Positions 28,046 to 55,489 are shown, numbered from the whole stretch's first letter. The stretch is DNA of 61,644 bases, filler included, from Dimargaris cristalligena (GCA_003614675.1; 11 parts of 11 records of this genome joined end to end with filler, not necessarily neighbours in it), one strand, 5' to 3'. The notes: generated by a model from the sequence alone, not told the origin. Made by a program: numbers and translations.

Positions 28046-29557
28046 NNNNNNNNNNNNNNNNNNNNNNNNNNNNNNNNNNNNNNNNNNNNTTAATTAATTA
28101 ANNNNNNNNNNNNNNNNNNNNNNNNNNNNNNNNNNNNNNNNNNNNCACAGAGCTATGCACCAACTTCAAACCCTCATATCTCCACCAATAATGATCCAAA
28201 TCCAACAAATGAAAATATTCCAGAAACCTCTTGACAAGGAGGACAGCTCAGCAAGATTCTGGATTATGACACAATCACCTCTGCGTGCCCTCGTCCCAAT
28301 AGTCAACTGTTGACCATCAATCCACCAGTCAGCAACCATCCATCGTTTCTTCCACTCCGCAGGAACCACCAGCATTGGCGTCCAAATCATCACTCATATC
28401 TGATAACCCAGCGCCGGCAGTGGTTCCCCACGTGAGAAGGCAACAAAAGTCCTAGGTGGGGAGGAAGTGGCAAGCCACACGCGTAGGGGAGCAGCTGGAA
28501 GTGAGGACGCCGCGATGGGAGGTGCATGGTGTTAGGGAAAGTTTGATGGCGATGGCTGGCGCAGGGCAATTCAATTGTCTTGTGGTGACAGCAAGGGGGG
28601 AGGCAGCTGGTCCCATGCAAAGAGAGCGGGATTGCAAGGGTGGCAACAGAGACAGGATGGAGGGAGGAGCAGTACTAGGTCATGCAAATGATACGGCTTT
28701 TCTGGGAAAACGTCAAAAAAAAGGATGAGGGGACCCAGGCAGGCAAGGGAAGGAGGCAACAGGACTGGAAAGGAGCCAACAAGGGAGAGAAAAGGATCAA
28801 GCCTAGGAAAGAGAGGAGGTGAAAACAAAGGACACATCAAGGAAGACGAGGGGAGGACTTGTCCCGGGGCAGGAGGTCTAAGAAAAATGGACCAACAACG
28901 AGGTTAAGGAGGCCAAGAGAAGGGAGGATGAGGTGAACATTTGGTGCGATGTAAAGAACAGACCTGTATCGGCTCTCTATGACTGTGAGGAGAATGTGAA
29001 CGGAAAGTGCGAAGTTCTAGAGGACGCAAGAAATAGCGACATGACCTTTGCCTTGTAGTCAGTGATTAAGACTTGCAGAGAGCTGACCTGGGACTATACC
29101 CTGGGGTCGAAGAGGTCTGCCAAGGTCTGCTCGGTCCATCCCGAGCTTGTCGGTACTAGGATAATTGGTGAGTAGAAGAAGTCCACAAAGCAGAGGCAGC
29201 AGTTCCACAGCTCGCCATGGGGTCCAAGGGATACTGCCATTGGGAAGGCGTCGAACCCGATCACCCTCCAGCGTGTTTGCAGAGCCATGAGAGTGTGGAG
29301 GAAGCTGTAGGGTTGCTGAGGGTCCTTGAAGGTTGGCAGTTCAGGCAGCTGGTTGTGTACTACTTGATCGCCACAAGCATTGACGACCAATAGTAATCGG
29401 TGACAAGATTCTTGATGGTCTTTATCTGACCCTGGTGCTTCTATTCAGCAATTTGGTCGTGGTATTGTTCCATGCTTGATCTGCATATGAGTTCTGGTAC
29501 ATAGAGTCGCGTCATAGTAGAGGATGTCGCTATCGAATTTGTACTGAGCCAGGGCGC

Positions 29558-30182
29558 TGTCATGATCCTGAGCGATGGTACAAGTACTGACCTGGAGCCA
29601 CAGTACAGGTTATGATCCAGAGGCATGGTACAAGTCCTGACCCGAAGCCACAGTACAGGTCATGATCCAGAGCCATGTAGAAGTCCAGACTCAGCGACCA
29701 GGTACAGGTAATGATCCAGAGGAATGGCACTTGGATACCTTCTAGCACAGCCCCAATGCCCCATGATTCTGGATATCTTCTAGCAAAGCCACAATCCATG
29801 CCACAGCCCCAACTCTCAGCACAGCCCCAAGCTTCCCCTCTATATAGACCCTTGTATCCCTTCCATTATAAACCATCCTGATCAACACCAGTCGTGGGCA
29901 ATACAATCTAGTCCTGCCTCCAAGTCCCCTTCATGTCTAGTCCCCTCCTGCTCCTCTCATCTCCCTGACTCCTGTTGCATGCACCTAGGCAACCCCCCTC
30001 TCCAAGTCGTTTCATTAAGTCCACACTCCCAACATCCCACCACTCAAGACTGCTGCCCCTGACAGGCGCTGAGCTTGGAGGTCTTCTTCGAGGCAATGGC
30101 AAGTAGGGTTTTGATGTCGAGCGAGTGGTCATTGGTTGACATATGGTGAAACCACGCTCCCCCTTCCTCAGGGCTGGTGACA
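29558..30182. mobile_element. LTR-like segment (TGTCA...TGACA, 625 bp) next to a decayed gypsy element
   Basis: Inverted 5-bp termini, internal tandem repeats, TATA-like motifs at about 29840-29870; no TSD. Confidence 0.45.
29562..29730. repeat. Tandem repeat, unit about 50 bp, about 3.3 copies
   Basis: ATGATCC starts at 29562, 29612, 29662 and 29711; unit approximately atgatccagaggcatggtacaagtcctgacccgaagccacagtacaggt. Confidence 0.9.
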
Positions 30183-30189
30183 TCGCCTG

Positions 30190-32440
30190 CTAATATGTCA
30201 ACTGGAAGCAAGCTTATTTCAGAAATGAGCAGAGTTCTTATGAGGACTTCGATTCGTTTTTAGCGTTGCATATTTCAGAGCATACTGGGACATGCCCAAG
30301 AGGAGGTCAGCTCCTGTGTTTATCCGGTACTCAATGGAGAAGTTGTACAAAGTTCTTCAGTCTAACCTGCTTGTCGCTAGCTGAGCTTTGCCTGCTGAGC
30401 TGCGGATTGCCGGGACTTCTTTCATGGGCCGCTTATGTTCTTTGTCCGTCTTTGACTAGATTAAGATGTTGTTGAGGGGGGACACAAAGAACTTTTTGTA
30501 CAGGTGACCGTGGATGGAGTTCATAAAGGGCTGAGAGCACGCAGGGGTGTTCAACAGCATGACAAAGAATTTGAAGTGACACTAACGGGTCCGGATCGCT
30601 GTCTTCATGGTGCTGTCCGCTGCAACCAGTACACTACGGTGAGCATCTTTGAAGTTCACAAGGGTCAAGTACTTGGCATAGGCTGATTGATCACGCATCC
30701 CAAGGAGACTTGGTAGCAGTTTTAGATCTCGCTTGGTGACAGGGTTGAGACCTTGAAATTTGAGGCATGGACATAGACAGCGGTCTACCTTCTTAGCAAA
30801 GGCAATGGATGCTCCCCGCTCTGATTGAGAGTGTCGTATTCATCCATTCTCGAGGTAGCTGTTGATCTGCTTTCTTAGCTTGTAAAGTTCGTCCTGAGTT
30901 AGTAGTTGAAGGGGGTGAAACTCTCGTTGCGCGCCTTTCTAGAAACTGGATCAAAAAGTTGGGCTTGCCCAGATCATGTGGAAGGCTGATGTTTGGCTGG
31001 AAAAGGGTGGTTTTGTCGCATTTTTGATTAGTTCTTTGAGGAAATTGTCCTGTCTATTCCTGGCTGAGTCGACTGACGGCATCACGTTGATTGGGTAGAG
31101 GAGCTCCTCCAGGGTGGCGATCTGTGTGAGGTTGATGTCTACGACATCAGGGTTGTTGGGGCTGTGCACCGGCATGCACTGGATGACATAGTCAAACATC
31201 CTGCAGCGCCACGTCTTGAGGAACGAGCTGGACTTCATCTGCATGGAACCAGTGATGGGGAAGGATTGTGGAGGTTTGGGCCCTTCGAGTTTGTCCTTGT
31301 TGCCCACGTTGACTGTGAATACTTGCGGCCAAGGGCAGTGCTTTGGTAGTTTCGGGAGAAGGGCAGTCTCCAATTTGTGGAGGATTGGTTGCAATGGGAC
31401 ACTGAAGCGCTGTTCCTGATTCTTGAACTCAACAGCCGGTCATGAGGCGCAGTCAGGCCAAGTGGTTGTGAATCCTTTATAGTAATTGGCCAGCGGAAGA
31501 CCAAGGATGGCGTTATATCGGATATAGGTGATCACCAACGGCAGGGCCTTGAGCTCTGATATACTTTTAGTGGCCAGGTTGTGCATGCTGATGTCGGCCT
31601 GAGTCATGTGGAGATATCGAGAGGACTTGCCGCGAGCCTCAAGATTGATTTGGAGGCGCCAAGAGGATCTGACATTGCGGAAGCGGTGTTTGGCGTGGAA
31701 GCAATCAGAGACAACAAATGTGTTGCAGCCGGAGTTCATGAGGATTCTGGTGAACTGGCGGTTGAGGCCGGCATGAATGACAGGCTGGTTAACGATGATA
31801 GGTTGGATGGGGTCTTCATTGAAGGAAAAGAGGGTGGCTTCCTTAACTCTATCTTACTTGTGGTGGTCGCCCATTCCCTTCTTATGCACCAGCGAAGTAG
31901 GGCTTTCTGCTGGCGCCTTCAATAATCTGGGCCCTCCGAGAATGGGTCCCATGACGAGTCCTATGACTCTTCTGCTTGTGTTGGCGGGTCCTCAATAGTC
32001 GCCACAGAGGTCTGGGCTCCCACTAGGGCCTGGGCAATACAAACAGCGAACTCTGGGTGCACTACCCCTAAGTTAGGGCTGATTTCCAGGTTGTCGATTT
32101 CGAACTTGTGGACCGATGTGCCGTGGCCCTGGGAGCTGGCGTCCTAGGGGTTGCTTCTGTTCCGCTTTGAAGGAGTGAGCAGCTCTGTACTGGGTACTAC
32201 CTCCGTGTCTGCATCTTCTGCGGCTAGCAGCGCCTCCTCGAGCGCCTCCTCGAGAGATTCCGCCTCCATGGCTCCAGCCACCTCTTTCATACGAGTTGCC
32301 TGGGTCTCTGGACTTGGAGCTCCATGCAAATCGACAATGCTATGGACACTCAAAAGTTGTCTGAGCAACAGCGCCGACAGGTGTTCCTTCTCATTGACAA
32401 GGATGATCATAAGCACCAACTCTGCGGAGGACGCATGACC
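30190..32440 (-). pseudogene. Degenerate, internally deleted Ty3/gypsy gag-pol (gag-like, protease, RT N-half, RNase H tail)
   Basis: The minus strand at 30915-30480 reads ELYKLRKQINSYLENG*IRHSQS..ASIAFAKKVD...FQGLNPVTKRD..LP...AKYLTLVNFKDAH...KTAIRTR*CHFKFFVM (RT). NSGC protease-like motif at about 31735; CxxC at about 32040. Confidence 0.8.
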
Positions 32441-33752
32441 ACACAGTACACACGCAAGCCTGGCCCTATGTTGTTATTTCCATGAGGGTGGATGAAAAAG
32501 GAATAGATGTTATCAATCACTTAGTACATGAGGGAGGAGAAAGTTTGAACTTTCATCTCTCATGCTTGGGGCAATAAGGATCCCAAGCTCGCCTTCTTGT
32601 GACTCAATGCTGTTTGTAGAATCTCATGGGGAGTCTGGATCTTAGTTGTGGGTGGTACATCTTGAGCACGCCTTATCTGTTGAGTCTTTGAGTCCCCCTT
32701 GACAAGTTGACAGAGAGGTACTTCCAGGAGCTGCGTGAGTCACGGTGCCATGGCGGGCAACCCCTGCCTCATCTCGTCCTTCAGGCTGAAGTAAGACTAC
32801 TCTCATCTAGCAACACTGGCCAACCGTGCGGAGAGCCATGAGTCCCCACGATGATCACAGCCCAAAAAAGGCCAACACCCCCTCCCAATCCCAGTCCCTA
32901 ACAAGCAACCCCTTTCATCAACCAAGAATGAAGCCCACCATAACGAAGAGTCTCCCCTCAATTGGGTTCTGAACATTGCCGGGCCCACAAAACAATCAAT
33001 CTTGTTCCAAATAAGCAGCTCGCTGGCAGATTCCGTCCTCCTGGCTGGCCCCCATCCTCCAGCCTGCACCCCGTTGACCCCACCACCCTCCTTCCCAAAA
33101 AAGAAAAACGGAATAAACGGGAGGCCGACTGAGGGTTGCTACGGTGGCAGAGGGACACGGAGGGGCACTGTGAAAGGGGAGAGCTAGGAAGGACTGGTGG
33201 GAAATCGTCGGGGCACGATAGGTGCCCCTTGTCGCTTCCCCTCCTTCCTCCCCTCCCTCGGCGTCACCCGTGCCCGGAGAACAGCAATCCTCTGAACGGC
33301 TCATCTGGACGTTGTTCGGAAAAGTACGCAGGGGGTCGTCCGCTTTCCGCAGGAGGTGAAAGCCGCTTTAGACTGTCCCCCTTTCCCGCGCGGCGCGTTT
33401 AGTTTATACGCGTCGGTCGACCCTGCAAAGGTGGATTCATAACACAAGGTCCACTAAATGCTTGCTTGGATGGCTTTCGTCGCGGTTCGCCGCCGCCCTG
33501 GGACTTTGGGTGCTGCCGCCGTAAGGAATCACCTTGGCGACACAGAGTCTTCGACATCGGCTTCCTCCTCGCGACAGCCTCCCATGTCCTTCAGGCTCTT
33601 GAAAGGCGGCGTTCGTCTCGTCACAAGGGAGCTGAGAAACTGCCTGGCTCTGNNNNNNNNNNNNNNNNNNNNNNNNNNNNNNNNNNNNNNNNNNNNTTAA
33701 TTAATTAANNNNNNNNNNNNNNNNNNNNNNNNNNNNNNNNNNNNNNNNNNNN

Positions 33753-33972
33753 GGTTGGGGGAAGCAGGGGTGGGAGCACCCTTGCAAGGGCCGCTCTGGC
33801 AACCGAATCCGCAGTGGGCGTCGGTTGAACCGCAGGAGCCAAAACCGCTACAGCAGGTGCCGTTGGCGCATGGCTTGGAAACGCTACAAGTACCATCCCA
33901 ATGCTGGGGCATGGCTGAAACAGCGATGGCCGAGAGAGTGGAGAGGAGAGCGACGGTGATAAACTTGACCAT
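33753..33972 (-). CDS. Secreted chitin-binding protein with CBM18/hevein domain; 3' truncated by the contig end
   Basis: Signal peptide MVKFITVALLSTLSAIAVSA followed by the 8-Cys hevein pattern CSVSKPCANGTCCSGFGSCGSTDAHCGFGCQSGPC and a Pro/Thr linker. Confidence 0.88.
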
Positions 33973-36900
33973 GGTGAGGGTGGGAAGCGAGGAGTGGTTG
34001 GGGCAAAGGCTAGTTGCGAGTGTAGTGACTGGAGGGCAAGTGGTGAGGGGGATGATAACTTCGTGTGCGTGAGTGGAACAGAGTGGAGTATGCGGTCGGT
34101 GTTGTTATAGAATGTAGGAATGATATTGATTCATAAGGTGGGCGTGTTTGGCTTTTATATTCCTGAGATAACTGGATAATGGAGAATCGGGACACGTTAC
34201 CTTGTAACTAGGAATTTGGTTCCCAGTCGATGCAGTACACGGACTGTAGGGACTTGGGCATGTCTGCGGTGACCCGGTGTACTCTGGTATTATCAGTGAA
34301 GTTCACAGATATGCACAATCAAGAAATACACAATACCCGGATGGTCTATTATTCCCATTGCCTTTTGATATTGGGTATGGAACAATAGCAGTACCGCCTA
34401 TCCCATTAGTTTCTGGACCGGGAAGTCATAATTGAGGCCTTTTGCTTTAAGCACAATAGTCACCAAATGATTCACACCACCTGTTATCCTGATATTCTAA
34501 GATTCTATATACTACGTCTCCACCGCGGGTACCAGGGATAATGTTGGGGGTGTCACTAGATGACTGGTTCACCACAGCAACGGTTAAATACTTGCGGACA
34601 ACCAGTATGTTAAAAATCCGCTAATTGAATTGTGAATTTAACAATGGGCATATAACGACAATCGAGGGTAATGAGTAACAAGTATTAAATACTCGCTCCA
34701 TCCCGTCATTATAGTCAAACGTTACTCACGCCAATGGTGTGTATTGTCCCAAAGTGGATATCGACTATCCAAAACCGGATCCATCCAATTTGGACACTTG
34801 TCTATTGTGTTCGTTTGTTGTTGCTGGAGGCATACCTGACGGTGGCCCTGGGTTAGCCCTACCTTACTTTTATCCATTGGGATATGTCACGGGTCGAATT
34901 GGCTTAGTAAACCTCCAAATGGTATCTCGTTCGTCCATTCTAAACACATGTACAATACCTGTAAAAAGTGACACGCAGTTATCTGTGGGGGGTATATCCG
35001 TCTACTATGGCTGGATATTGCCCTATATTACCACAATGTGTCAGAAAGTAGACTCGAAAAATGATGGAACTAGCGTCACCAATAGTGAGTTTCAAGTTTC
35101 AGAGTGTGGTCATAGACTGTTTAAGTAATCGTTATAGAGTGACCTTGCCGGTACGACAGGGAACACACCATGAGTTGCGGCGTAGATTATTATGTTGCGA
35201 CTTTTGTTTCAACTAAGGCAGAGCCCGCTCTGATTAGATCACCAGGCTGCATCAGTGGGTTGCACACCCAGCAATAGGCTACACCAATAAGCCAATATGC
35301 TAAGACGGCATATCAAATTACGTTTTGCGCAAATTCATGATCGTGGATAATTGCCATCACTCTCATGCAAGGTCTTTCATCAGCGAGATCTCACGTTAAT
35401 AGGATCTAAAATTTGTTGGAAATGCTAATGGAGTATCAATAAGGCTATATAGAAAGGAGAAAAGCAGATAGAGGTGACATGTGCCTCTGGATGGCTAGTT
35501 TTATTGAATGGTATAGTTGGTGGGGGGCATTTTGAATGGTTGATATCACCCGGGTTAACTACTCTTAGTCCATCAAGAGTCCTGAGGATAGGCTTCTAAT
35601 GGTAGGCAGGGCTTAGACTTGGCTAATTGGGCTACTAGTGCTAGGACAGGGGTGTAGTACTAACCAATAAAGGATAATGCAGGTATATGCAAGGGACGTG
35701 CAGCAGGCACACTTACTAGTTGGTACAAGGGGGGTAAGTGTATATAGAGTTTATTGAGGTAACTAAGGGGTAGAGATAAGCTAAGGAATTGAACCAGTCC
35801 TGGTAGGGCCTGGTTATATGTATGCAGGGACAGCTCCAGAGGGAGGTCCTAAGGGAAATACTACTAAGACTAAGGTATGGAAGTAAAGAATCTGACTAGA
35901 TGACTTCACATTGGGAAGACTCTCATGGGAACTTGAAGAGTCTGGGATCAGTAAGTTGAGTGTTTGGAGTGCAAAGCATTGGGGTTAAATGAGCAGGGTT
36001 ACATAATAAAGGATGACCCCATAGTACCAGGGGTGACTATGGGAGGGTCAATATGGCACTATAAGGCAAGAATAGGATGGGTGATTATTAGGTCTGGATC
36101 AAGTTAGATTAGAAGGGCCAATATCACCCTCTCCTACTGGAGCCTCTTCCTTGAGGCCTTCAATAAATGTAATAATCTGGTCACCGGAGACTCATTCCTG
36201 TGGGTGGTATTTGTCATGGACCACTGGGGTAATGGTATAGGTGTTACCACTATGGGTAGCTTTAATAGAGACAGGTCCCTTGAAGGGGGCCTGTAAGGTT
36301 AATATGCCATGTGGGACTCAGATGAGGACATGGTCACCAATATGATATTGTGTGGGGTTAGTTGGCTTGGGTCCCGGTTTGTGATAGACATATTGGTAGG
36401 CTTCATGGAGCTGATTACATAGCTTGTCAACATAGGCAGAACCAGTGGAGGCTCGTAAGGCCTTGGGTTTGGTGTTCAGTGTAATGTCGACTGGCATGTG
36501 GGAGTCACATCCATACATCAGAAAGAAGGGCTTATTGGCAATTATGCGGACATGAGCCATGTGGTAGGTAAATAAGTGGAGGGTAAGGTGTTGGTCCCAT
36601 TGGGGGTCATCACCAGAGGAATATTTGGTGATCATGTGCTTGAGGGTCCCATTGAGATGCTCTACCACCCCATTATTCTGGGGGTGGTAGTGAACAGCCA
36701 TCTGGTGGTCCACCCCTAAGAGTTGTAGGGTCTGCCAGAGAAGGCTAGCAGTAAATTGTTTGCCACAGTCAGAGATGAGGATCCAGGGGCATCTATGCAT
36801 GCTGATAATGTCTTTGATGAGGAACTAAATGATGGCTTGGGTAGTAATGTGGGGCATGGCATGCACAAAGTGCCAGCAGGTGAAGTAGTCAACAGCAACA

Positions 36901-37389
36901 ATGACAAACTTATTGCCATTCTTCATTGTATTAAAGGGACTAATAATATTAATTCCAAGATGGTCCAAGGGTCCAGTAAGAGGGGTGACAAGCTGAGCTG
37001 GGGGCAGTGGGGTCTGTTGGTGGCATTGGCAGGTCCCACATCCTCAGACATGTTCCTTAATATCTAGATCCATGGATGACCAATAAATGATTTGGTGGAG
37101 GCAATGGAGGACCATTTCAGCTCCTAGGTGACCTGCACCAGGTCTGCCATGGGTGGCCTCGATAGCGGCAGCTTGGTGGGCCTTGGGTAACACTAGATGG
37201 TTCTGTCTGCTGGGTCCCTATTGGTAGAGGAGCTGCTCATTAACCACAAAGGCCTGGTTTTTTCTATGGAATTGGCAAAACATCCAGCCTTCTATTCAGT
37301 CATGTAGGTTTCTGATATCAGGGTCTGCCAATTGATCCTGGAGAATTTGGGCAGGGGGGACAGTGACAGTAAAGATGGTGGGTTGGGCA

Positions 37390-38050
37390 TCTGTAGAATC
37401 AAAGCCAGAGGGGCCATGTTTAGTTTTGACCAGGGTGGTGGTTTTGAACAGGAAATGGGCCTCGTATTATTGAAAGGTTAGCTGGGTAATGCACTCTCCT
37501 GGCTGAAAGTGAAGTACTTCATGTCCAATATGGGAAATCTACTACCCACCAATAAGAGCAACATAGATCACTGTAGATCATTGTAGATCTTTCCCAGTCA
37601 TGGCAGGCCAATTATAAGGCTGCTATACTACTCATGTGAGTTATTACTACATAAAAATTTTTTATTCCTCTTAGATGAATGGAGTAGTCAATCCAATATT
37701 CACATATATAAACTAAATAAAGTTCTCCTCTGGGGAACAGTAGATCCTCTGAATATCAACAATTTTGACACTTCAGAGGTAAGGTTATGCATGAGCACTT
37801 GGATTTCTCCATGGAAGTCAGTGTCTATGACTCTGCCTCTGATGGTAATGTGACACAGACCTAGGGAACTGCATTCTCAGATGAGGGCTACCATGGGGGG
37901 CTCCATTTGGAGGGCTCAGCCTGTGGCTACTTTTGTGCATTGATGGGGTGCCAGATCAAACTCAGTGATGCATGTGAATTCATAGCCTGTGGAACTGGGG
38001 GTGGCCTGCATAGGCAGGATGGCCTTCAGGTGGTAACATTTGATGGCAAA
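37390..38050 (-). pseudogene. Trimeric dUTPase domain of the gypsy pol, interrupted by a solo LTR
   Basis: All five motifs in one frame after removing the insert: STGYEF, ECSSL, GRVIDTDFHGEIQVLMHN, PGECITQL, TKHGPSGFDST. Confidence 0.85.
37522..37770 (+). mobile_element. Solo LTR (family B), 249 bp, inserted in the dUTPase
   Basis: TGTCCAATA...ATTTTGACA termini, perfect 5-bp TSD CTTCA, internal TATA-like and AATAAA motifs. Confidence 0.85.
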
Positions 38051-38984
38051 CTCAGGGGGTTTAGTCCCAGGCCCAATGTAGCTGATTAGCTGTTCATCCA
38101 GTAAATTCACTACTTACAGTGTGGCTAGCTGGGATAGTCCATTGGTGTTACTGTGCACTCGGCCGGGGCAGTGGCAGACTGTGAAATTGTATTCCTGTAG
38201 GGTCAGGTACCAGTGTTTGAGGCAGCCTGATTGGGGGGTGGTGGAATGGAGCCATTGTAATGGTGCATGGTCCATTTTTATGGTGAAGTGTTGCCCATAC
38301 AAGTGTAGTGCCATCCGGAGGTCAGCACTTATCCCCGGACTATGGATAGCCAGTCCTCATTGTCAGAGGGCGGAACATACTATGACATGCAATGGCAGTA
38401 TCACTCCCTCCATTTACCCACAAAAAAAATATATAAATATGTACCGCCTACACTGTGGCATATACAAAAAACCAACAAAATATTATTCATTTCTTTATAC
38501 TCACAGTTTGCATTAAAAAGCCTGCCGTTTTCTTCCTTGTATTTAAAAGTCTGACCTGTTTTTCAGTGGATTCCTTATCATTCCATTTTATTCTATTCTT
38601 GACCTTCCTTTTACGTCCCTTCTCTTGTATCCAGTGGCCCCTAAGGCCCACAGGATGGCTGCATAAGTAGCCAGCAAATTCCCACTCATTTAAGAGAAGA
38701 ATCATCACTCGTATCATTTTGAAACTCATAACTCTACCACCCCTTAAGCCCAGTCCTGAATTTTTTATTAATCATTTTCATATCATTTACCACTACCATC
38801 TCTATTCATTTTATTTATTCTCAATAAAACCTTCATACCACTTGTCATATCCTGCCCCCCACATCCTCTGTCTGCTCCACCAACTACTCACCTCCTCCAA
38901 AACCCCACTATGTCAATATCCAATTCTACCCCAGTCTCCTCCCACTCCGTGAACCTCCCATCTTCTGCTGCCAGGGAACCAGTA

Positions 38985-39095
38985 TCACAGTATGGTGGTG
39001 TTAAGCCACTAAAATGAATAACAAAAATATATCAAAAGGGCAGGGTGGCTTCTCCAGGTGAACTGGTTTATCACTCAAATAAAAATATTAATAAA
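38985..39095. repeat. Dispersed repeat, inverted copy at about 50590-50690
   Basis: aagccactaaaatgaataac...gggcagggtggcttctccaggtgaactgg shared between two contigs. Confidence 0.75.
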
Positions 39096-39356
39096 ACCAA
39101 CTTTATAAAGTTTTTAACTAAAGTAATCCAATATGAAAAATACTTGTTTGGAAGCTCAAAAGGTCAGTCCTTGGCAACCATAACTTGAAGTATAAAATCC
39201 CAATAACTAGTGTAGTAATAAAGATAGGTATTATTATAAAAGAAAAGATACCCAAANNNNNNNNNNNNNNNNNNNNNNNNNNNNNNNNNNNNNNNNNNNN
39301 TTAATTAATTAANNNNNNNNNNNNNNNNNNNNNNNNNNNNNNNNNNNNNNNNNNNN

Positions 39357-41430
39357 TAATCAGATAGCCGTTATAGACAAATAGATCGGGGCGTTCGTAG
39401 GACGAGTGGTCAATGTTGATGTTGAAATAGCCCATTTTGCCAGCATTGGCCTTGAGCGAGGTTGTGGACAGCCAGACATCGGGTGTTTTCTTATTGGTGA
39501 TGGGTGGAATGGCCAAGGTCTGGGTATTATCGAATCCAGACACACTCTGGGCGTTAGTCGACTGTAGTTTGTAGGTCCAGGCGCTATCACCCGTGTTATT
39601 ATAGCTGAAAAACATGTCAAAGTCACGCCAATCGGAATCGGGGAAGGTGCCGTTAATACTAGTGACATTGAAGATGATCTGGGAGGTGGTAGCACCAAAG
39701 CCGTTGATAATACCGGCCCCTTGCTGAATTACTGGGAAGTAAGTTAGGCTGGCGGCATCAATTTGAGGGCGGGCAGTATTAACAATGGCGGCCAGAGTTC
39801 CATTGCCGGCGTTGCTTTTACCGTATTCAATGGCCAGCGCAGACACACCAGCGACATAGGGGGTGGACATTGAGGTTCCGGATACGATACCATACGATCC
39901 AAACTGAACGGGAAAGGGGGCGTAGATGTTAGAGCCAGGCCCGAGGAGCTCAGGCTTGACATCAGACTCGGGACCAGGACCCCACGATGAAAAGGCAGAA
40001 GGCGCACGCGGAGTAAACGAATCGAAAATCACACTATCTGCTCCTGCCGAGACCGTGACAATGACGGCAACGTTTATCTTATTGATCAAGTAGACCGCAT
40101 CGGCTCTGTAGATGGCCACTGCGGGGAGGTACAATGGGCGGTCGTATGCAACAGTGGAGGGGTCACTGCTGTCGCTCTGGTAGACAACCATCAAAATACC
40201 ACCGGCATTTTGGACATTCAGGCCCTTGGTATACATAGTACAGCCACCGTTTTGCACAAGAACCACTTTGCCGGTAACGGTAGGTAATGCGTTGCACCCA
40301 TAATCGTCGGTGGTGCTTCCGGCAGCCAATCCGCGGACAATTTGAACTTGGTTTAGATTGAGAGCGGGTAGGTAGTTCTGAGACATGGTACGGCGAATTC
40401 CCACTAGCTCGTCGGATGTCACGTTGAAATACTGGCTGTAGTGGAAGGCCATTTCAGCAGAGCCCACTGAAACAACCGAATTACGAACCGATGGTCCGTC
40501 AATCGACCACATTCCGTCTTTGCCACGGTTACCGGCGGCCGATACCACGAAGACGCCTAACTGAGCCAGCGTTGCTGAGGCATCACCTGAAGCAGAGGCC
40601 CCCCAGGCACCGGGGAATCCGATAGACATGGTGACAATATTCATGCCGTCCAAATAAGCTTGTTCCAGTGCCTTGACCACGATACTCTCAGTGACAATAT
40701 TGTAGCAACCCATTACACGGTACACGCCGATGGTAGCATCGGGGGCCACGCCCTTGAAGTCACCATCGTTACCTGCAAGAATTCCGGTCACATGAGTCCC
40801 GTGGTACTGGCAGGGATCAAAAGGGTCACTATCGGGAACCGCATTTTTACCCGAAAAAAAGTCGCCCACGAAATCATACCCGTACTGGAGACGGCAACCG
40901 GAGGTTTTGAAGCAGCTGCCAAACGCGGGGTGGTTATAGTCGATACCCGAATCGAGCACCCCAATCTTGACGTTGCGACCGGTGACGTTCAACACGTTCT
41001 GGACATTGTTGACTCCGGTGTAGTTGTGGGCCAGCATGGGTTTGGGCGACTGAGTAGGGAAATACGGGGATGATGTAGCTGAAATAGTCGTCGCATCCAG
41101 ACTACTAATACCCAAGGGCCACACGATTTGGACACCTGGTAAGGAGGCCATGGCATCGTTATATTGATCGTCGACTTCGAGACTCACCCCGTTCAGCAAT
41201 ACCGAATAATTAGCCGTAATGGTATAGGGAATACCCAGAGCAGCCATCTGGGCAAAGAACGAAACGGACCCTGACGGATCGCCGGGATCCCCGTTGAACT
41301 TGACAATGTAGTTGTGGGGGATGGTGTTGAAGGCAACGCTACTTGGACCTCCGATCAATTGGCCCGTGGTCGAGGGCAAATCGCCCAGGAGGGCCGTGGC
41401 TAGAACCGCCCATAACGAATAGGTACGCAT
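39357..41430 (-). CDS. Secreted subtilisin-like serine protease (S8, with I9-like prodomain and PA domain); 3' truncated
   Basis: Signal peptide; triad VLDSGIDY, HGTHVTGI, SGTSMSTPYVAG; AAGN oxyanion motif; PA insert GKVVLVQNGGCTMYTK; QQGAG. Confidence 0.94.
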
Positions 41431-44265
41431 GGTCAATGACCGAGCCCGACGGGTTGGAGCGACTGAATACTAAATAAAGCAGGTGTCCCACGTAAAGGAT
41501 ACGTATATAGAGAAAACTGAGTAATGGCAGATCGACTACTTCTAAAAAACGAACCAATTAGTTATGTTGTTCACCAAGACTATTATTACGGGTACTAAGT
41601 TAGATTTCGAAAGCTGTAAGGCGAGCCGACTCTTTATATACGAGACTTTGGTAGTCCTCCGAGAATTTTCAGCCGAGCGGCTTCAAATACAATTCCATAT
41701 AATTTACTGTACATACTTCATATTATTCTTATACACTAACTTTACTATTTAACCAAGTAGTTTAAAATGCGTTTATCCGGATGTCTTATAATTAACTAAT
41801 GGCGGTATGTGGATTTGGAAACTACCCACCTTTACAGTGCCATTTCTCTTGACCATATCATACCCATGCATCCCTTGCCTCACACTAATTAGGAATTACA
41901 GGGCAATCACTTGGCCATCCATTCCTGTCTCTCGCCAAAAGTACAGGCTTGCTTGCCATGCTATGGACCATTCGTAGTGGTTAAACGTGGTTTCTATACA
42001 CAACCATGCGCTCATTATACTCCCAGGTCGTGAGAAATATACGAATTCCAGAATTCGATTTTCACATAATGACCACGCTTTAATGGTGCTCCTCAAGTAG
42101 GTCACTGAGTAGAAGTAGTGGTAGACTTAATGCCCTTTAGGTCTACCTCTATATATAGAAATTTAAGTTTATTCAAATAGCAATAGCAGGTTCTCACACG
42201 TGAAGGGTCACCCTCAAAAATTGCAGGGATTCTTCCTCCTCCACATAGGACAGAAATGACTTCTATGCCTGTTAATGATGCAGAGAGAAATAGCTCATCA
42301 CCGAGGTAAACCCCCTCCCAATCCACAGATGAGAGAAATAGTTCGAAAGCTCCCTCTTTCGGATCAAAATTCATCTTGGCAGTATACCATATGCGCTTGC
42401 CATTCATTTTCAAGTCAGACCTTACAACTGACTCCCTTGTCCACACTATGTAACTTCTATATCTTGGTTGATATATACCGAGTAGAGATAGCACGTGTTA
42501 GGTGAACTGCTTTCCAAATTAATTCATTACTATTCCATATTCGGCTGCGTCAGTTGACCAAATCAGCTTAACACCCCTGGTGTATGTTTATTTTTGCAAA
42601 TCCAGTGACTGACCTGTAATTCCACTCTAAACAATTAGCCGGAAATCATCCTCAAAATCCCCTATTGACCCTATGATGAGATCATCCGCATTGGTAGAAT
42701 TACAGCATCACATTAGTATGGGCGACATGTAAAGTATATGGAAATGATTAACAACTATTGGAAGTAAACAGTATCTCCTGGATTTACAAGGACCACCGGA
42801 GCCAACCATGGGCCAGCTCTTCTGAAACAATGGAATCTGGCTCTGGAATAGCGTAGAATGCCTTATATTCCAGCATTTATAGCATGAGAAAAATCTTAAC
42901 CACCCGAGTAGCCATAGTCGCTGTATACAATAAGAGGATCGTCGCGTCCTTGATATAGCTTCGTGTCTTAATAAATCATTATCACTATATGTGTTGTGCT
43001 TTACAGTACTAATACAGCCTGGTTTCGCTCCCTCCCCCCATAGTATATATTACAATGCATATGGTATATATATGGGAAGTGAAAAAAAAAGGAATAAATA
43101 ACGAATGCGAATTACAAGAAGCAGCGAGGGCCAATCAGTCACCCCCGAGTGAGGGACGACATCATGTGCAGCCACGCAGTCGTGGCTGTTGACCAGCCCA
43201 ATACCATATTAGAGACCAGACAGGAAGGCTACGAAACCATATAGTGATAAGAGTTCCCAGGGATGACTTATCAACAGTGAAGTGCAATGGGGATTTCAAT
43301 ACATGGGCATGATAAAATGATGAATAGATAAGGGTTGACTGGTGTACGCGATATAGAAACCGGCCATGGATCATTAGATTTTAACTTGACAGTGTATATA
43401 TATAGTGGGCCACCACCAGAAGACTATATAGGTTAACAAATTGATGTTTCTAAAAAGTATTTACTAATATCTGGGGGGCACTGATAGGAACTAATATAGT
43501 CCTGGAATTAACGTGGAAAGTGGAGTGAGGAGGTCCGTTGTATGCTAGCTAGCTTGGGTGGTTGATTGGTTCAGCTCCGGGTGTTGTCAAAATAGAATGT
43601 ACTCATGTGGCCGATCATACGTGCATAGATTTGGACGTATGAGCGCGGGATATCCTGTACAGCAAAATCAAAGCTCTTTATATAAGTCCGGTGAATTATA
43701 AATAGCATCTTCATGTATTAAATATACTGGGCCATATCCTAGAAGGAATCTGCTAAGGTATTCGGCACTAACCCGGTCGGCATTATATCGACTACCATCC
43801 AAAAGTTGATTGGTATGCTTGTTTCTAGCAAAGTCTACTTGATGACGAATTAACAGTATTAATTGGACATACCATTACATTTATTAACTATATAATTTTC
43901 TTCGCCAATGTATTTTACCAAGTTATACTACTTGCGACTATGTATATGTCTACTTAAAAATATTAGCCACATTGCTGCATCTAGGTTTGTAAAATAAAAA
44001 TGCTGTAACCTTGAAGAGGGAAGAACGGAGCGGACTATTCAAAGAATAATCAATTTTATAAAATGCTGAGCTCTACTAAGCATTGAAAACATTCCGATGC
44101 CATTCATTTTCCCGTTCCTATATCCATGCCTAACATTATACATGAGTTACAGTGCCGACAAATACAGTCACTCCACTACCTTGCAAATCCCTTAACTGAA
44201 GGTTTAGGGATCTGCCACGCTGATGCTAAGACGTCCTGGGAAGGGTGCCAAGCTTATATCCCGAG

Positions 44266-50259: not shown

Positions 50260-50689
50260 AATGCATCTGTGTTGTGGTAGGACCTGAGACTACTTAGTCA
50301 ATCGTAGTATTCCTTTTTTCAATCACATTCTATTTTTATATCCTTTTATCAACGAAGTCATGATTTATTATTTTATAGCCTTACAATATCATAGCAAGCG
50401 AGAGATATCATCATCAGCCAGATATATTCGTAAACTCCTCATTATTTATCAATTCAAGNNNNNNNNNNNNNNNNNNNNNNNNNNNNNNNNNNNNNNNNNN
50501 NNTTAATTAATTAANNNNNNNNNNNNNNNNNNNNNNNNNNNNNNNNNNNNNNNNNNNNTTTATTATAAAAAGTATTATATTTTTAAAGAATTTCATAGAG
50601 TGACTAACCAGTTCACCTGGAGAAGCCACCCTGCCCTTTTTGATATACTTTGTTATTCATTTTAGTGGCTTGATACCACCACAGTGACA

Positions 50690-51002
50690 CCGGTCCCCAT
50701 GGGGGGCCTGGTTATATATACGTGGGGGACTACTCCAAGGGAGGTCCCGAGGGGAAACTACATAACTAAGATAATGATAGGGGGGGGTGGGTGGTCCTCG
50801 TACAAGCGGAGGCTTCCATGGGAACTGGAAGACAGTAAGATCACCTAGGAGTGAGTAGTGTGAACTCTGGGGGGGTCTGGCCAGTGAGATGATATATATG
50901 ATGTCCAGCCCCATTAGGACTGGGGGTACAATATGGTGCTATATGGTCTGCTATGATGGTAATCATTAGCAGATGGATTAGGTCAGATTAGGAGGGGCAA
51001 CA
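50690..51002 (-). mobile_element. Partial LTR (family A)
   Basis: ggggcctggttatatatacgtgggggactactcc...gattaggaggggcaaca matches LTR-A. Confidence 0.8.
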
Positions 51003-52020: not shown

Positions 52021-52603
52021 TGTTGCCCAAGTTAACTACTCTTAGTCCATCAAGAGTCCCGAGGATAGGCTTCTAACAGTAGGTGGGGCTTAGGCTTAGC
52101 CAAACAGGCTACTAGTATTAGGGTGGGTGTAGTACTAACCAATAAAGGATAGGTGCAGACAAATGCAAGGGACATGCAGCAGGCACACTTACTAGTTAGT
52201 ACATGGGGGGGTGAGTATATATAGAGTTTATTAAGGTAAACTAGGGGATATGAATAAGCTAAGGAATTGAATCAGTCCCAGTGGGGCCTGGTTATATATA
52301 TATGGGGACAGCTCCAGAGAGAGGTACGAAGAGAAATACTACTATGACTATGGTGTGGATAAGTAAAGAATCTGACTGGATGGCTTCACATCAGGAAGAC
52401 TCTTATGGGAACTGGAAGAGTCTTGAATCAGTGAGCTGAGTATTTTGAGTATAAAGCATTGGGGTCAAATGAGTGGGGTTACATAATAAGGGATGACCCC
52501 ATAGTACCGGGGGTGACTATGGGAAGGTTAATATGGCACTATAAGGCCTAATAAGGACAGACAATTGTTAAGTCCAGATTAAGTCAGATTAGGAGGGCTG
52601 ACA
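52021..52603 (-). mobile_element. Solo LTR (family A), 583 bp
   Basis: TG...CA termini and perfect 5-bp TSD AATCA. Confidence 0.92.
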
Positions 52604-54937: not shown

Positions 54938-55489
54938 TGTCACCCAGGTTAACCACTCTTAGTCCATCAAGAGTCCTGAGGATAGGCTTCTAATGGTAAG
55001 TGGGGCTTAGGCTCAGCCAAGTGGGCTACTAGCATTAGGGAGGGATCAGTACTAACCAATAAAGGATGAGTGCAGGCTAATGCAAGGGACGTGCAGCAGG
55101 CATACTTACTGGCTAATACAATGGGTGAGTATATAATGAGTTTATTGGGGTAAACTATGGGGGTAAGAAATAAGCTAAGGAACTGAACCAGTCCCAGAGG
55201 GGCCTGGTTATATATATATGGGGACTGCTCATAATGAGGGGTCCTTAAGAGCAATGGGATGACTAAAGAAGAGGCAAGGGTTGGGGCCTTGGCCGGGGGG
55301 GCTTGCATCCAGAAGACTCCACTAAGATAGGGAGGAATATTGGATCAGCTGGTGGAGTATTGTGTGAGAAGCATTGGGGCCCAGTTATAGTGGGTTATAT
55401 AGCAAGGGAAGAGTAATATGGTGCAGTAAGGCAAGATTGGACAGTATGATTAGTATTCTTGTATTTAGGGAGGATTAGGCAAGCTGATA
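54938..55489 (-). mobile_element. Solo LTR (family A), 552 bp
   Basis: TGTCACCC...CTGATA termini and perfect 5-bp TSD GCATT. Confidence 0.9.

Follow-up and report, generated by a model that had tools for sequence, protein, structure and literature searches.

A dUTPase domain between RNase H and integrase in a decayed Ty3/gypsy retrotransposon of the fungus Dimargaris cristalligena

Dimargaris cristalligena carries the remains of a Ty3/gypsy (Metaviridae-type) long terminal repeat (LTR) retrotransposon in which a trimeric-type dUTPase lies between the RNase H and the integrase of Pol, the order known from non-primate lentiviruses. We examined this element in a window of 61,644 bases from assembly GCA_003614675.1, which consists of 11 contigs of ~5.5 kb joined by N44, a 12-base linker with stops in all frames and a further N44 (20 N runs in all). 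The locus sits in contig 33753–39256, and evidence on other copies was drawn from public protein collections and from read-derived contigs. From these sources we conclude that a trimeric-type dUTPase probably separated RNase H from integrase in the Pol of this family, of which the window holds a dead 3′ remnant.

Reading frame and domain order of the element

Between 36111 and 38356 the minus strand holds a single reading frame, in which the end of RNase H is followed by a trimeric-type dUTPase and then by the zinc finger and core of the integrase; 3′ of the integrase frame come a purine tract and then the 3′ LTR. The frame was translated in two parts, with stops read as X: 37776–38356 (first reading) and 36111–37520 (second reading). 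The offset between the two is 254 nt (254 mod 3 = 2), equal to a 249-nt insert plus one copy of a 5-nt target duplication, so that excising both brings the two readings into one frame. Ten in-frame stops interrupt it, three in the first reading and seven in the second, and there are no frameshifts across the two readings. Translation thereby confirmed the original prediction, made from the DNA sequence of the window, of a continuous minus-strand frame broken by point stops and one removable insert. The parts of the element are as follows, P0012 and P0013 being D. cristalligena proteins described in the next section.

38117–38356, minus strand: C-terminal end of RNase H and the conserved tail after it (PF17917 at residues 18–56 of the first reading, 38189–38305)
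38024–38116, minus strand: linker from the RNase H tail to the dUTPase, starting with a TAA stop (38114–38116); alignable in P0012 and P0013
37776–38023, minus strand: first two thirds of the dUTPase (motifs 1–3; PF00692), with TGA stops at 37916–37918 and 37877–37879
37517–37775, minus strand: secondary insertion flanked by repeats; the 249-nt body (37522–37770) starts with TG and ends with CA
37392–37520, minus strand: last third of the dUTPase (motifs 4–5), with a TAA stop at 37467–37469; placed by alignment to P0012 and by tblastn
37017–37187, minus strand: zinc-binding (HHCC) domain of the integrase (PF17921, residues 112–168 of the second reading)
36681–36920, minus strand: catalytic core of the integrase (PF00665, residues 201–280 of the second reading)
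36201–36680, minus strand: C-terminal region of the integrase; tblastn alignments of the Pol proteins P0005 and P0006 reach 36201
36127–36135, minus strand: purine run resembling a polypurine tract, assigned by its position only, next to the 3′ LTR
35541–36126, minus strand: 3′ LTR (LTR-A), ~586 nt, with TG..CA ends set by eye and a BLAST-supported core at 35546–36118

Pfam identified RT_RNaseH (PF17917, E 1.8e-7, profile positions 67–105 of 105) and the part of the dUTPase before the insert (PF00692, E 1.8e-9, 37.9 bits against a curated cut-off of 22, profile positions 3–84 of 129) in the first reading, and Integrase_H2C2 (PF17921, E 6.7e-11) and rve (PF00665, E 5.2e-8, 33.5 bits against a cut-off of 32.6) in the second. 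The dUTPase, RNase H and rve families that had been proposed for the reconstructed frame are therefore all significant, and their order within one frame matches the lentivirus-like order RNase H–dUTPase–integrase that had been claimed. The part of the claim that concerned RNase H stands in reduced form: the domain is present, but just as its last ~40 profile positions, the element being cut off at ~38304–38356. Upstream of that point tblastn with Pol proteins found no reverse transcriptase (RT) or RNase H similarity, and contigs from other runs break or change at 38304–38332.

The tail that follows RNase H aligns with Pol proteins through residue 76 of the first reading, among them residues 447–478 of a green-alga Pol (P0117) whose Pfam RNase H ends at 450. 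On the other side of the dUTPase, Gypsy Pol proteins cover 36201–37394 in tblastn, and the integrase frame enters the LTR ~25 codons past the C-terminal region. No chromodomain (PF00385) was matched at E ≤ 1 in a Pfam search of the second reading, where decay might mask a weak match. The element holds the 3′ LTR only, its 5′ LTR having gone with the truncation, and the best full-length protein matches to the locus are Gypsy Pol proteins. With the gypsy-type families PF17917, PF17921 and PF00665 in order on one strand and in one frame, and the integrase downstream of RNase H, the locus is a truncated 3′ remnant of a Ty3/gypsy LTR retrotransposon that comprises the end of RNase H, a dUTPase, an integrase and a 3′ LTR.

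The identity of the dUTPase was examined beyond Pfam. Against the PDB, the first reading matched 18 distinct sequences at E ≤ 0.01, all of them dUTPase-family chains, although some are deposited under other names (Pol polyprotein for 1f7d, Wsv112, uncharacterised protein); the best match was 3lqw (E 1.5e-7), and the enzyme of feline immunodeficiency virus (FIV), 1f7d, followed at E 8.1e-5. The part after the insert is too short for a Pfam score alone, but 21 of its 43 residues are identical to residues 143–185 of P0012, whose domain matches it in tblastn at E 8e-7 (query residues 92–134). The window copy has all five dUTPase blocks in collinear order, in agreement with the five trimeric dUTPase motifs proposed originally.

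Both domain junctions are spanned, with 0–1 differences, by contigs assembled from further public sequencing runs of this organism, and the arrangement is therefore real DNA rather than a chimera of this record. Within the window, tblastn with both translations matched the locus itself only, giving no second internal copy. Two word-index protein searches with the decayed translations returned only generic Gypsy Pol proteins (22–47% identity), and PF00692 was absent from the three matches of one search and the five of the other.

Relatives carrying the same RNase H–dUTPase junction

A phmmer search with the RNase H tail and dUTPase reading against 1.84 billion representative proteins gave 4098 matches at E ≤ 0.001, only two of which reached E ≤ 1e-30. 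Both are from D. cristalligena: P0012 (185 residues, 61% identical), named ‘dUTPase-like protein, partial [Dimargaris cristalligena]’, and P0013 (92 residues, 65% identical), which belongs to another accession series; the accessions concerned are RKP33166.1 and KAJ1971904.1. The two proteins start with the post-RNase-H tail of Gypsy Pol, continue with a common linker and then enter the dUTPase; over the RNase H tail and the pre-insert dUTPase, 86 of 141 residues of the window copy are identical to P0012. The green-alga Pol P0117 was rejected as a dUTPase relative, since it has only the tail in common with P0012 and no PF00692. A third Dimargaris fragment, P0026, holds a dUTPase alone (49–52% identical) and has idiosyncratic residues in common with the family. 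Among the read-derived contigs, a diverged one found in 2–3 runs is collinear with the locus, with pieces of integrase, 37998–38050 (the dUTPase start) and RNase H.

Copies so diverged cannot share an accidental insertion, so the dUTPase was in the element while the element multiplied, and the RNase H–dUTPase junction is shown to be a family-level feature.

Unlike the window copy, P0012 retains a complete dUTPase domain (PF00692, E 1.3e-30, 106.3 bits, profile positions 3–128 of 129). Its five checked motif stretches read as expected, and its alignment to active enzymes of solved structure (3so2 and 8hrv) shows no loss over any conserved block, including the C-terminal one. An ESM Atlas model of P0012 matches dUTPase clusters with template modelling (TM) scores of 0.72–0.74 by query.

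Secondary insertion and decay of the window copy

The 249-nt insert body is flanked by direct repeats of TGAAG at 37771–37775 and 37517–37521. A 527-nt contig from another run matches 37524–37766 alone, which identifies the insert as a discrete repeat found elsewhere in the genome. P0012 runs across the site without it, and just one P0012 residue, at the insert-bridging codon, is left unaligned, so the insertion removed nothing. Excision of 37522–37775, as first suggested, accordingly takes out the body and one 5-nt target duplication. The insert is a secondary LTR-element insertion, probably the solo LTR of another element.

The observed/expected ratio of CpG is 0.09 in the element, compared with 0.73 for the host DNA beside it and 0.89 for the contig that comes next, while CpA is in excess (1.55) and TpA/ApT stands at 0.86. 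Classical repeat-induced point mutation (RIP) was considered as the decay process and is ruled out by the TpA/ApT ratio and the CpA excess; the decay is methyl-CpG deamination, in a pattern typical of methylated, silenced repeats. Its effect is visible at the 12 Arg positions of P0012, of which the window copy keeps two, the others having become Cys (four), His (two), Gln (two), a stop (one) and Lys (one). Together with the CpG ratio, these fates largely bear out the suggestion that CpG deamination explains the deviations from the dUTPase motifs. With three internal stops, the 249-nt insertion and Arg-to-Cys/His changes in conserved blocks, the dUTPase of the window copy is not catalytically competent, and this copy is a dead fossil without function. 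All sequence 5′ of the RNase H tail is gone, a probable solo LTR has inserted into the dUTPase, and CpG-to-TpG/CpA transitions have accumulated throughout.

LTR abundance and internal copy number

LTR-A occurs as eight segments in the window, the number predicted as a minimum, and the seven others are 71–84% identical to the LTR of the element. In runs X2 and X5 its summed contig depth is ~60–265 times that of unique flank, and many contigs have loose ends at 35544–35546. The family had been called successful on this account; the abundance of the LTR agrees with that description, but the internal part does not, being at low copy (~1–6 times unique depth in the same two runs).

The low internal copy number weighs against the family reading of the dUTPase-bearing Pol, as activity of the family in its dUTPase form may always have been modest. 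Two further points weigh in the same direction. No full-length copy of the family was seen among public proteins or read-derived contigs. The dUTPase–integrase junction is seen directly in the window copy only, P0012 ending at the last dUTPase motif and the collinear diverged contig being indirect evidence.

Several further observations concern LTR-A and its surroundings. Two equally oriented copies, at 52031–52598 and 54940–55230, are 2.9 kb apart without Pol similarity between them, and may represent a non-autonomous derivative, which would explain the excess of LTRs over the internal part. The truncated element adjoins an AT-rich, highly repeated sequence (38331–39256), part of which (38974–39076) recurs inverted at 50598–50698 with 87.5% identity. 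In other genomic copies, seen in read-derived contigs, the outer end of LTR-A directly adjoins position 39075. This repeat could be the leader of that LTR family or a preferred site of insertion. Runs X6 and X7, from a second organism, contain LTR-A-like pieces and, diverged by a few per cent, the host flank 33827–35734, with essentially no cover of the internal part (36145–38330); the second organism may lack the insertion here.

Position of the dUTPase among Pol proteins

To place the arrangement among other dUTPase-bearing proteins, domains were mapped by phmmer on 301 fetched proteins, 163 of which had a dUTPase match. The sample is biased, consisting of the best 150 of 4098 matches, the best 120 of 537 matches and cluster members, and the 163 proteins divide as follows.

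dUTPase alone: 93 of 163 proteins
dUTPase before RT or RNase H: 25 of 163 proteins
dUTPase after integrase: 24 of 163 proteins
Tandem dUTPases: 18 of 163 proteins
RNase H then dUTPase (P0012 and P0013): 2 of 163 proteins
dUTPase before the integrase core (P0052): 1 of 163 proteins

Among the fetched Pol-linked dUTPases, the position between RNase H and integrase is found only in this Dimargaris family. Pfam on nine Pol proteins placed the dUTPase after integrase in four, before RT/RNase H in five and between RNase H and integrase in none. Three apparent parallels were set aside. In P0052 the dUTPase precedes rve, and P0201 has Pol_BBD, dUTPase and rve in that order; both fit the Copia arrangement instead, the label ‘Copia-type’ being our inference from their Pfam families; P0142, a weak phmmer match suggesting RNase H and dUTPase, has no dUTPase by Pfam.

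Two ESM Atlas clusters retrieved with P0012 speak against uniqueness, although both score below the bar of the tool. In the first (311-residue representative, 135 members, score 0.89), dUTPase is recorded for 100% of members and Integrase_H2C2 for 54%; in the second (447-residue representative, 51 members, score 0.81), the figures are 100% for dUTPase, 94% for Integrase_H2C2 and 55% for RT_RNaseH. Proteins that short with these domains would have the dUTPase directly before the integrase zinc finger, as judged from their lengths. The recorded members of the 51-member cluster are all eukaryotes, with Basidiomycota given for the two members that have a phylum, and the clusters thus hint that the order may occur in other fungi.

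Searches in other collections recovered no further case. Viral contigs scanned with the family alignment yielded ordinary viral dUTPases, none of 80 loci having a Pol domain beside the dUTPase. In metagenome contigs, searched with two short peptide patterns and hence weak on absence, a Pol domain accompanied the dUTPase at a single locus of 80, L102, where the dUTPase comes before RT, and no locus had the order RNase H–dUTPase–integrase. Searches of largely open-access literature found the position between RNase H and integrase described for lentiviruses only, and for no retrotransposon. The order is unpublished within the literature searched, but it is probably not confined to this fungus.

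The original prediction also held that dUTPase is rare in LTR retrotransposons, which is true of elements in print, whereas many unannotated Gypsy and Copia Pol proteins carry PF00692. Those of Copia type (recognised by PF07727, PF13976 or PF25597) include P0204, P0225, P0237 and P0260, and 28 rows of the tree described below are labelled Copia-type; the literature consulted here makes no mention of dUTPase in Copia elements. As a separate case of extra material in the linker between RNase H and integrase, the Gypsy Pol P0117 (Tetrabaena socialis) has ~580 residues without a Pfam match from RNase H, which ends at 450, to the zinc finger, which starts at 1030; its integrase is followed by a PHD finger.

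Comparison with known systems

In the articles cited here and below, fungal Gypsy elements are described with dUTPase at the Pol N-terminus, between protease (PR) and RT, or at the Pol C-terminus (PMC2864245). The elements concerned are PosPlaTy3-3, -4 and -5 of Postia placenta, elements of Phanerochaete chrysosporium and Tmt1 of Tuber melanosporum, and repeated independent acquisition of dUTPase has already been proposed for them (PMC2864245). Tmt1 is placed with its dUTPase between PR and RT (PMC5408684, PMC6431247), in line with the original statement that it lies near the protease. Like these elements, the Dimargaris element has an in-frame trimeric-type dUTPase in a fungal Ty3/gypsy Pol. 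They are, however, chromoviruses of Basidiomycota and Ascomycota, whereas the Dimargaris element has no detected chromodomain and its relatives are zoopagomycete; its dUTPase, with the RNase H tail on one side and the zinc finger of the integrase on the other, is at none of the fungal positions described there.

The rotifer elements Juno, Vesta and TelKA and Burro-like elements of planarians are also Ty3/gypsy-like with a dUTPase inside Pol, but they are found in animal hosts and have it between PR and RT (PMC5408684, PMC6431247). Among the unannotated Gypsy-type Pol proteins, P0205, P0253, P0282 and P0300 (after integrase) and P0207 and P0244 (before RT) carry PF00692 at E 1e-29 to 1e-45, in each case elsewhere than between RNase H and integrase.

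The same Pol position, enzyme family and presumed role are found in non-primate lentiviruses such as FIV and equine infectious anaemia virus (EIAV), whose Pol runs RT–RNase H–dUTPase–integrase (PMC2238898, PMC5408684). Unlike in lentiviruses, the flanking domains are of Ty3/gypsy type (PF17917 and PF17921), the host is a fungus and the dUTPase is nearer to cellular enzymes: P0012 scores 93.6 bits with 3so2 and 84.6 bits with human 2hqu, against 53.9 bits with FIV 1f7d (E 1.7e-13). Given this and the Gypsy-type flanks, the shared position is convergent, a likeness of placement without common descent, and implies no membership of the lentiviruses.

Origin of the dUTPase and alternative explanations

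A quick maximum-likelihood tree was built from 144 dUTPase domains over 136 columns, leaving out tandem dUTPases and matches of <100 residues (including P0013), with group labels assigned partly by hand from Pfam lists. The host enzyme was not included, and 56 of 123 inner branches were unresolved. The window copy and P0012 pair with 97% support in the Shimodaira–Hasegawa-like approximate likelihood ratio test (SH-aLRT), P0026 being the nearest row. No supported set joins this pair to another element-borne group, and the nearest other rows are without a Pol domain.

Independent capture of the dUTPase, as originally proposed, is plausible on these sequence comparisons, P0012 being nearer to cellular enzymes and not nested among element-borne dUTPases; a tree without the host dUTPase does not demonstrate it. 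We tentatively suggest that an early-diverging fungal (Dimargaritales-like) Ty3/gypsy lineage independently captured a cellular-type dUTPase, which became fixed in the linker between RNase H and integrase.

A somewhat unlikely source is another Gypsy or Copia element, from which a dUTPase before RT or after integrase would have moved into the linker by recombination. Element-borne dUTPases are abundant enough to supply one (24 after integrase and 25 before RT/RNase H among the 163 fetched proteins), Copia-type proteins carry them too, module sharing among retroelements has been argued (PMC5408684), and the residues that P0026 has in common with the family fit such a transfer. The pairing of the window copy with P0012, unjoined to any other element-borne group, tells against it, in what is a weak tree.

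It is improbable that the dUTPase was a catalytically dead structural module even in intact copies. Such a case has been reported for bovine immunodeficiency virus (PMC4261571), but P0012 matches almost the whole PF00692 profile and aligns with the active cellular enzymes 3so2 and 8hrv through the C-terminal block.

Least credible of all is a one-off event, in which a fragment of host dut or of another element landed in a single copy and the order is no property of the family: the low internal copy number in read-derived contigs, the lack of a second copy in the window and the one other insertion that the window copy demonstrably took would suit it, but this possibility, which the original prediction had named as its own refutation, is itself largely refuted by P0012 and P0013, which carry the same in-frame junction of tail, linker and dUTPase, are unlikely to be allelic or assembly variants of the window locus at 61–65% protein identity, and accompany a frame that is continuous on both sides of the dUTPase.

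Other features of the window

A reverse-transcriptase remnant lies at 30414–30938 on the minus strand (contig 28146–33652), 27–33% identical to Gypsy Pol with E down to 9e-22. Beside the element, at the end of its contig, a small cysteine-rich open reading frame (ORF) at 33697–34104 (minus strand) has a signal-peptide-like start and, by eye, resembles a secreted chitin-binding-type protein. A subtilisin-like ORF (39301–41469) adjoins the element only across a contig joint; because the window consists of joined contigs, arguments from neighbourhood across such joints, as for this ORF, are meaningless.

Proposed role and significance

Trimeric dUTPases act as homotrimers with five motifs and have a proposed role in retroviruses (PMC4531489, PMC2864245); for non-primate lentiviruses the proposal is that it matters where the dUTPase of the host is low, as in non-dividing cells. 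Because roles are established for the retroviral enzymes (PMC4531489), we infer a comparable one here. In intact copies the dUTPase would have been translated within Pol and would have entered the virus-like particle alongside RT and integrase; the protease of the element might free it, or it might stay fused to RT–RNase H. The putative homotrimer would hydrolyse dUTP to dUMP and pyrophosphate, leaving less uracil in the cDNA in cells with little host dUTPase, such as non-dividing ones.

What is new here is a positional variant among LTR retrotransposons with a dUTPase, from a fungal lineage that has received little study. Retroviruses and retrotransposons have gained dUTPase several times, at differing places in the polyprotein, and these gains serve as taxonomic markers and as evidence of a recurrent problem of uracil in cDNA. 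The lentiviral order in a fungal Ty3/gypsy element is a further convergent case, and the mobile elements of the phylum concerned have scarcely been described. Together with the unannotated Gypsy and Copia Pol proteins, it suggests that published accounts (‘rare, a few basidiomycetes, rotifers’) understate both the frequency and the positional flexibility of the domain. No major concept is changed by this. If independent capture by an early-diverging fungal lineage is correct, the Dimargaris family would represent a fourth, unpublished dUTPase position in Metaviridae-type elements, the linker between RNase H and integrase would be a recurrently permissive site, and control of dUTP would have been selected repeatedly in reverse-transcribing elements.

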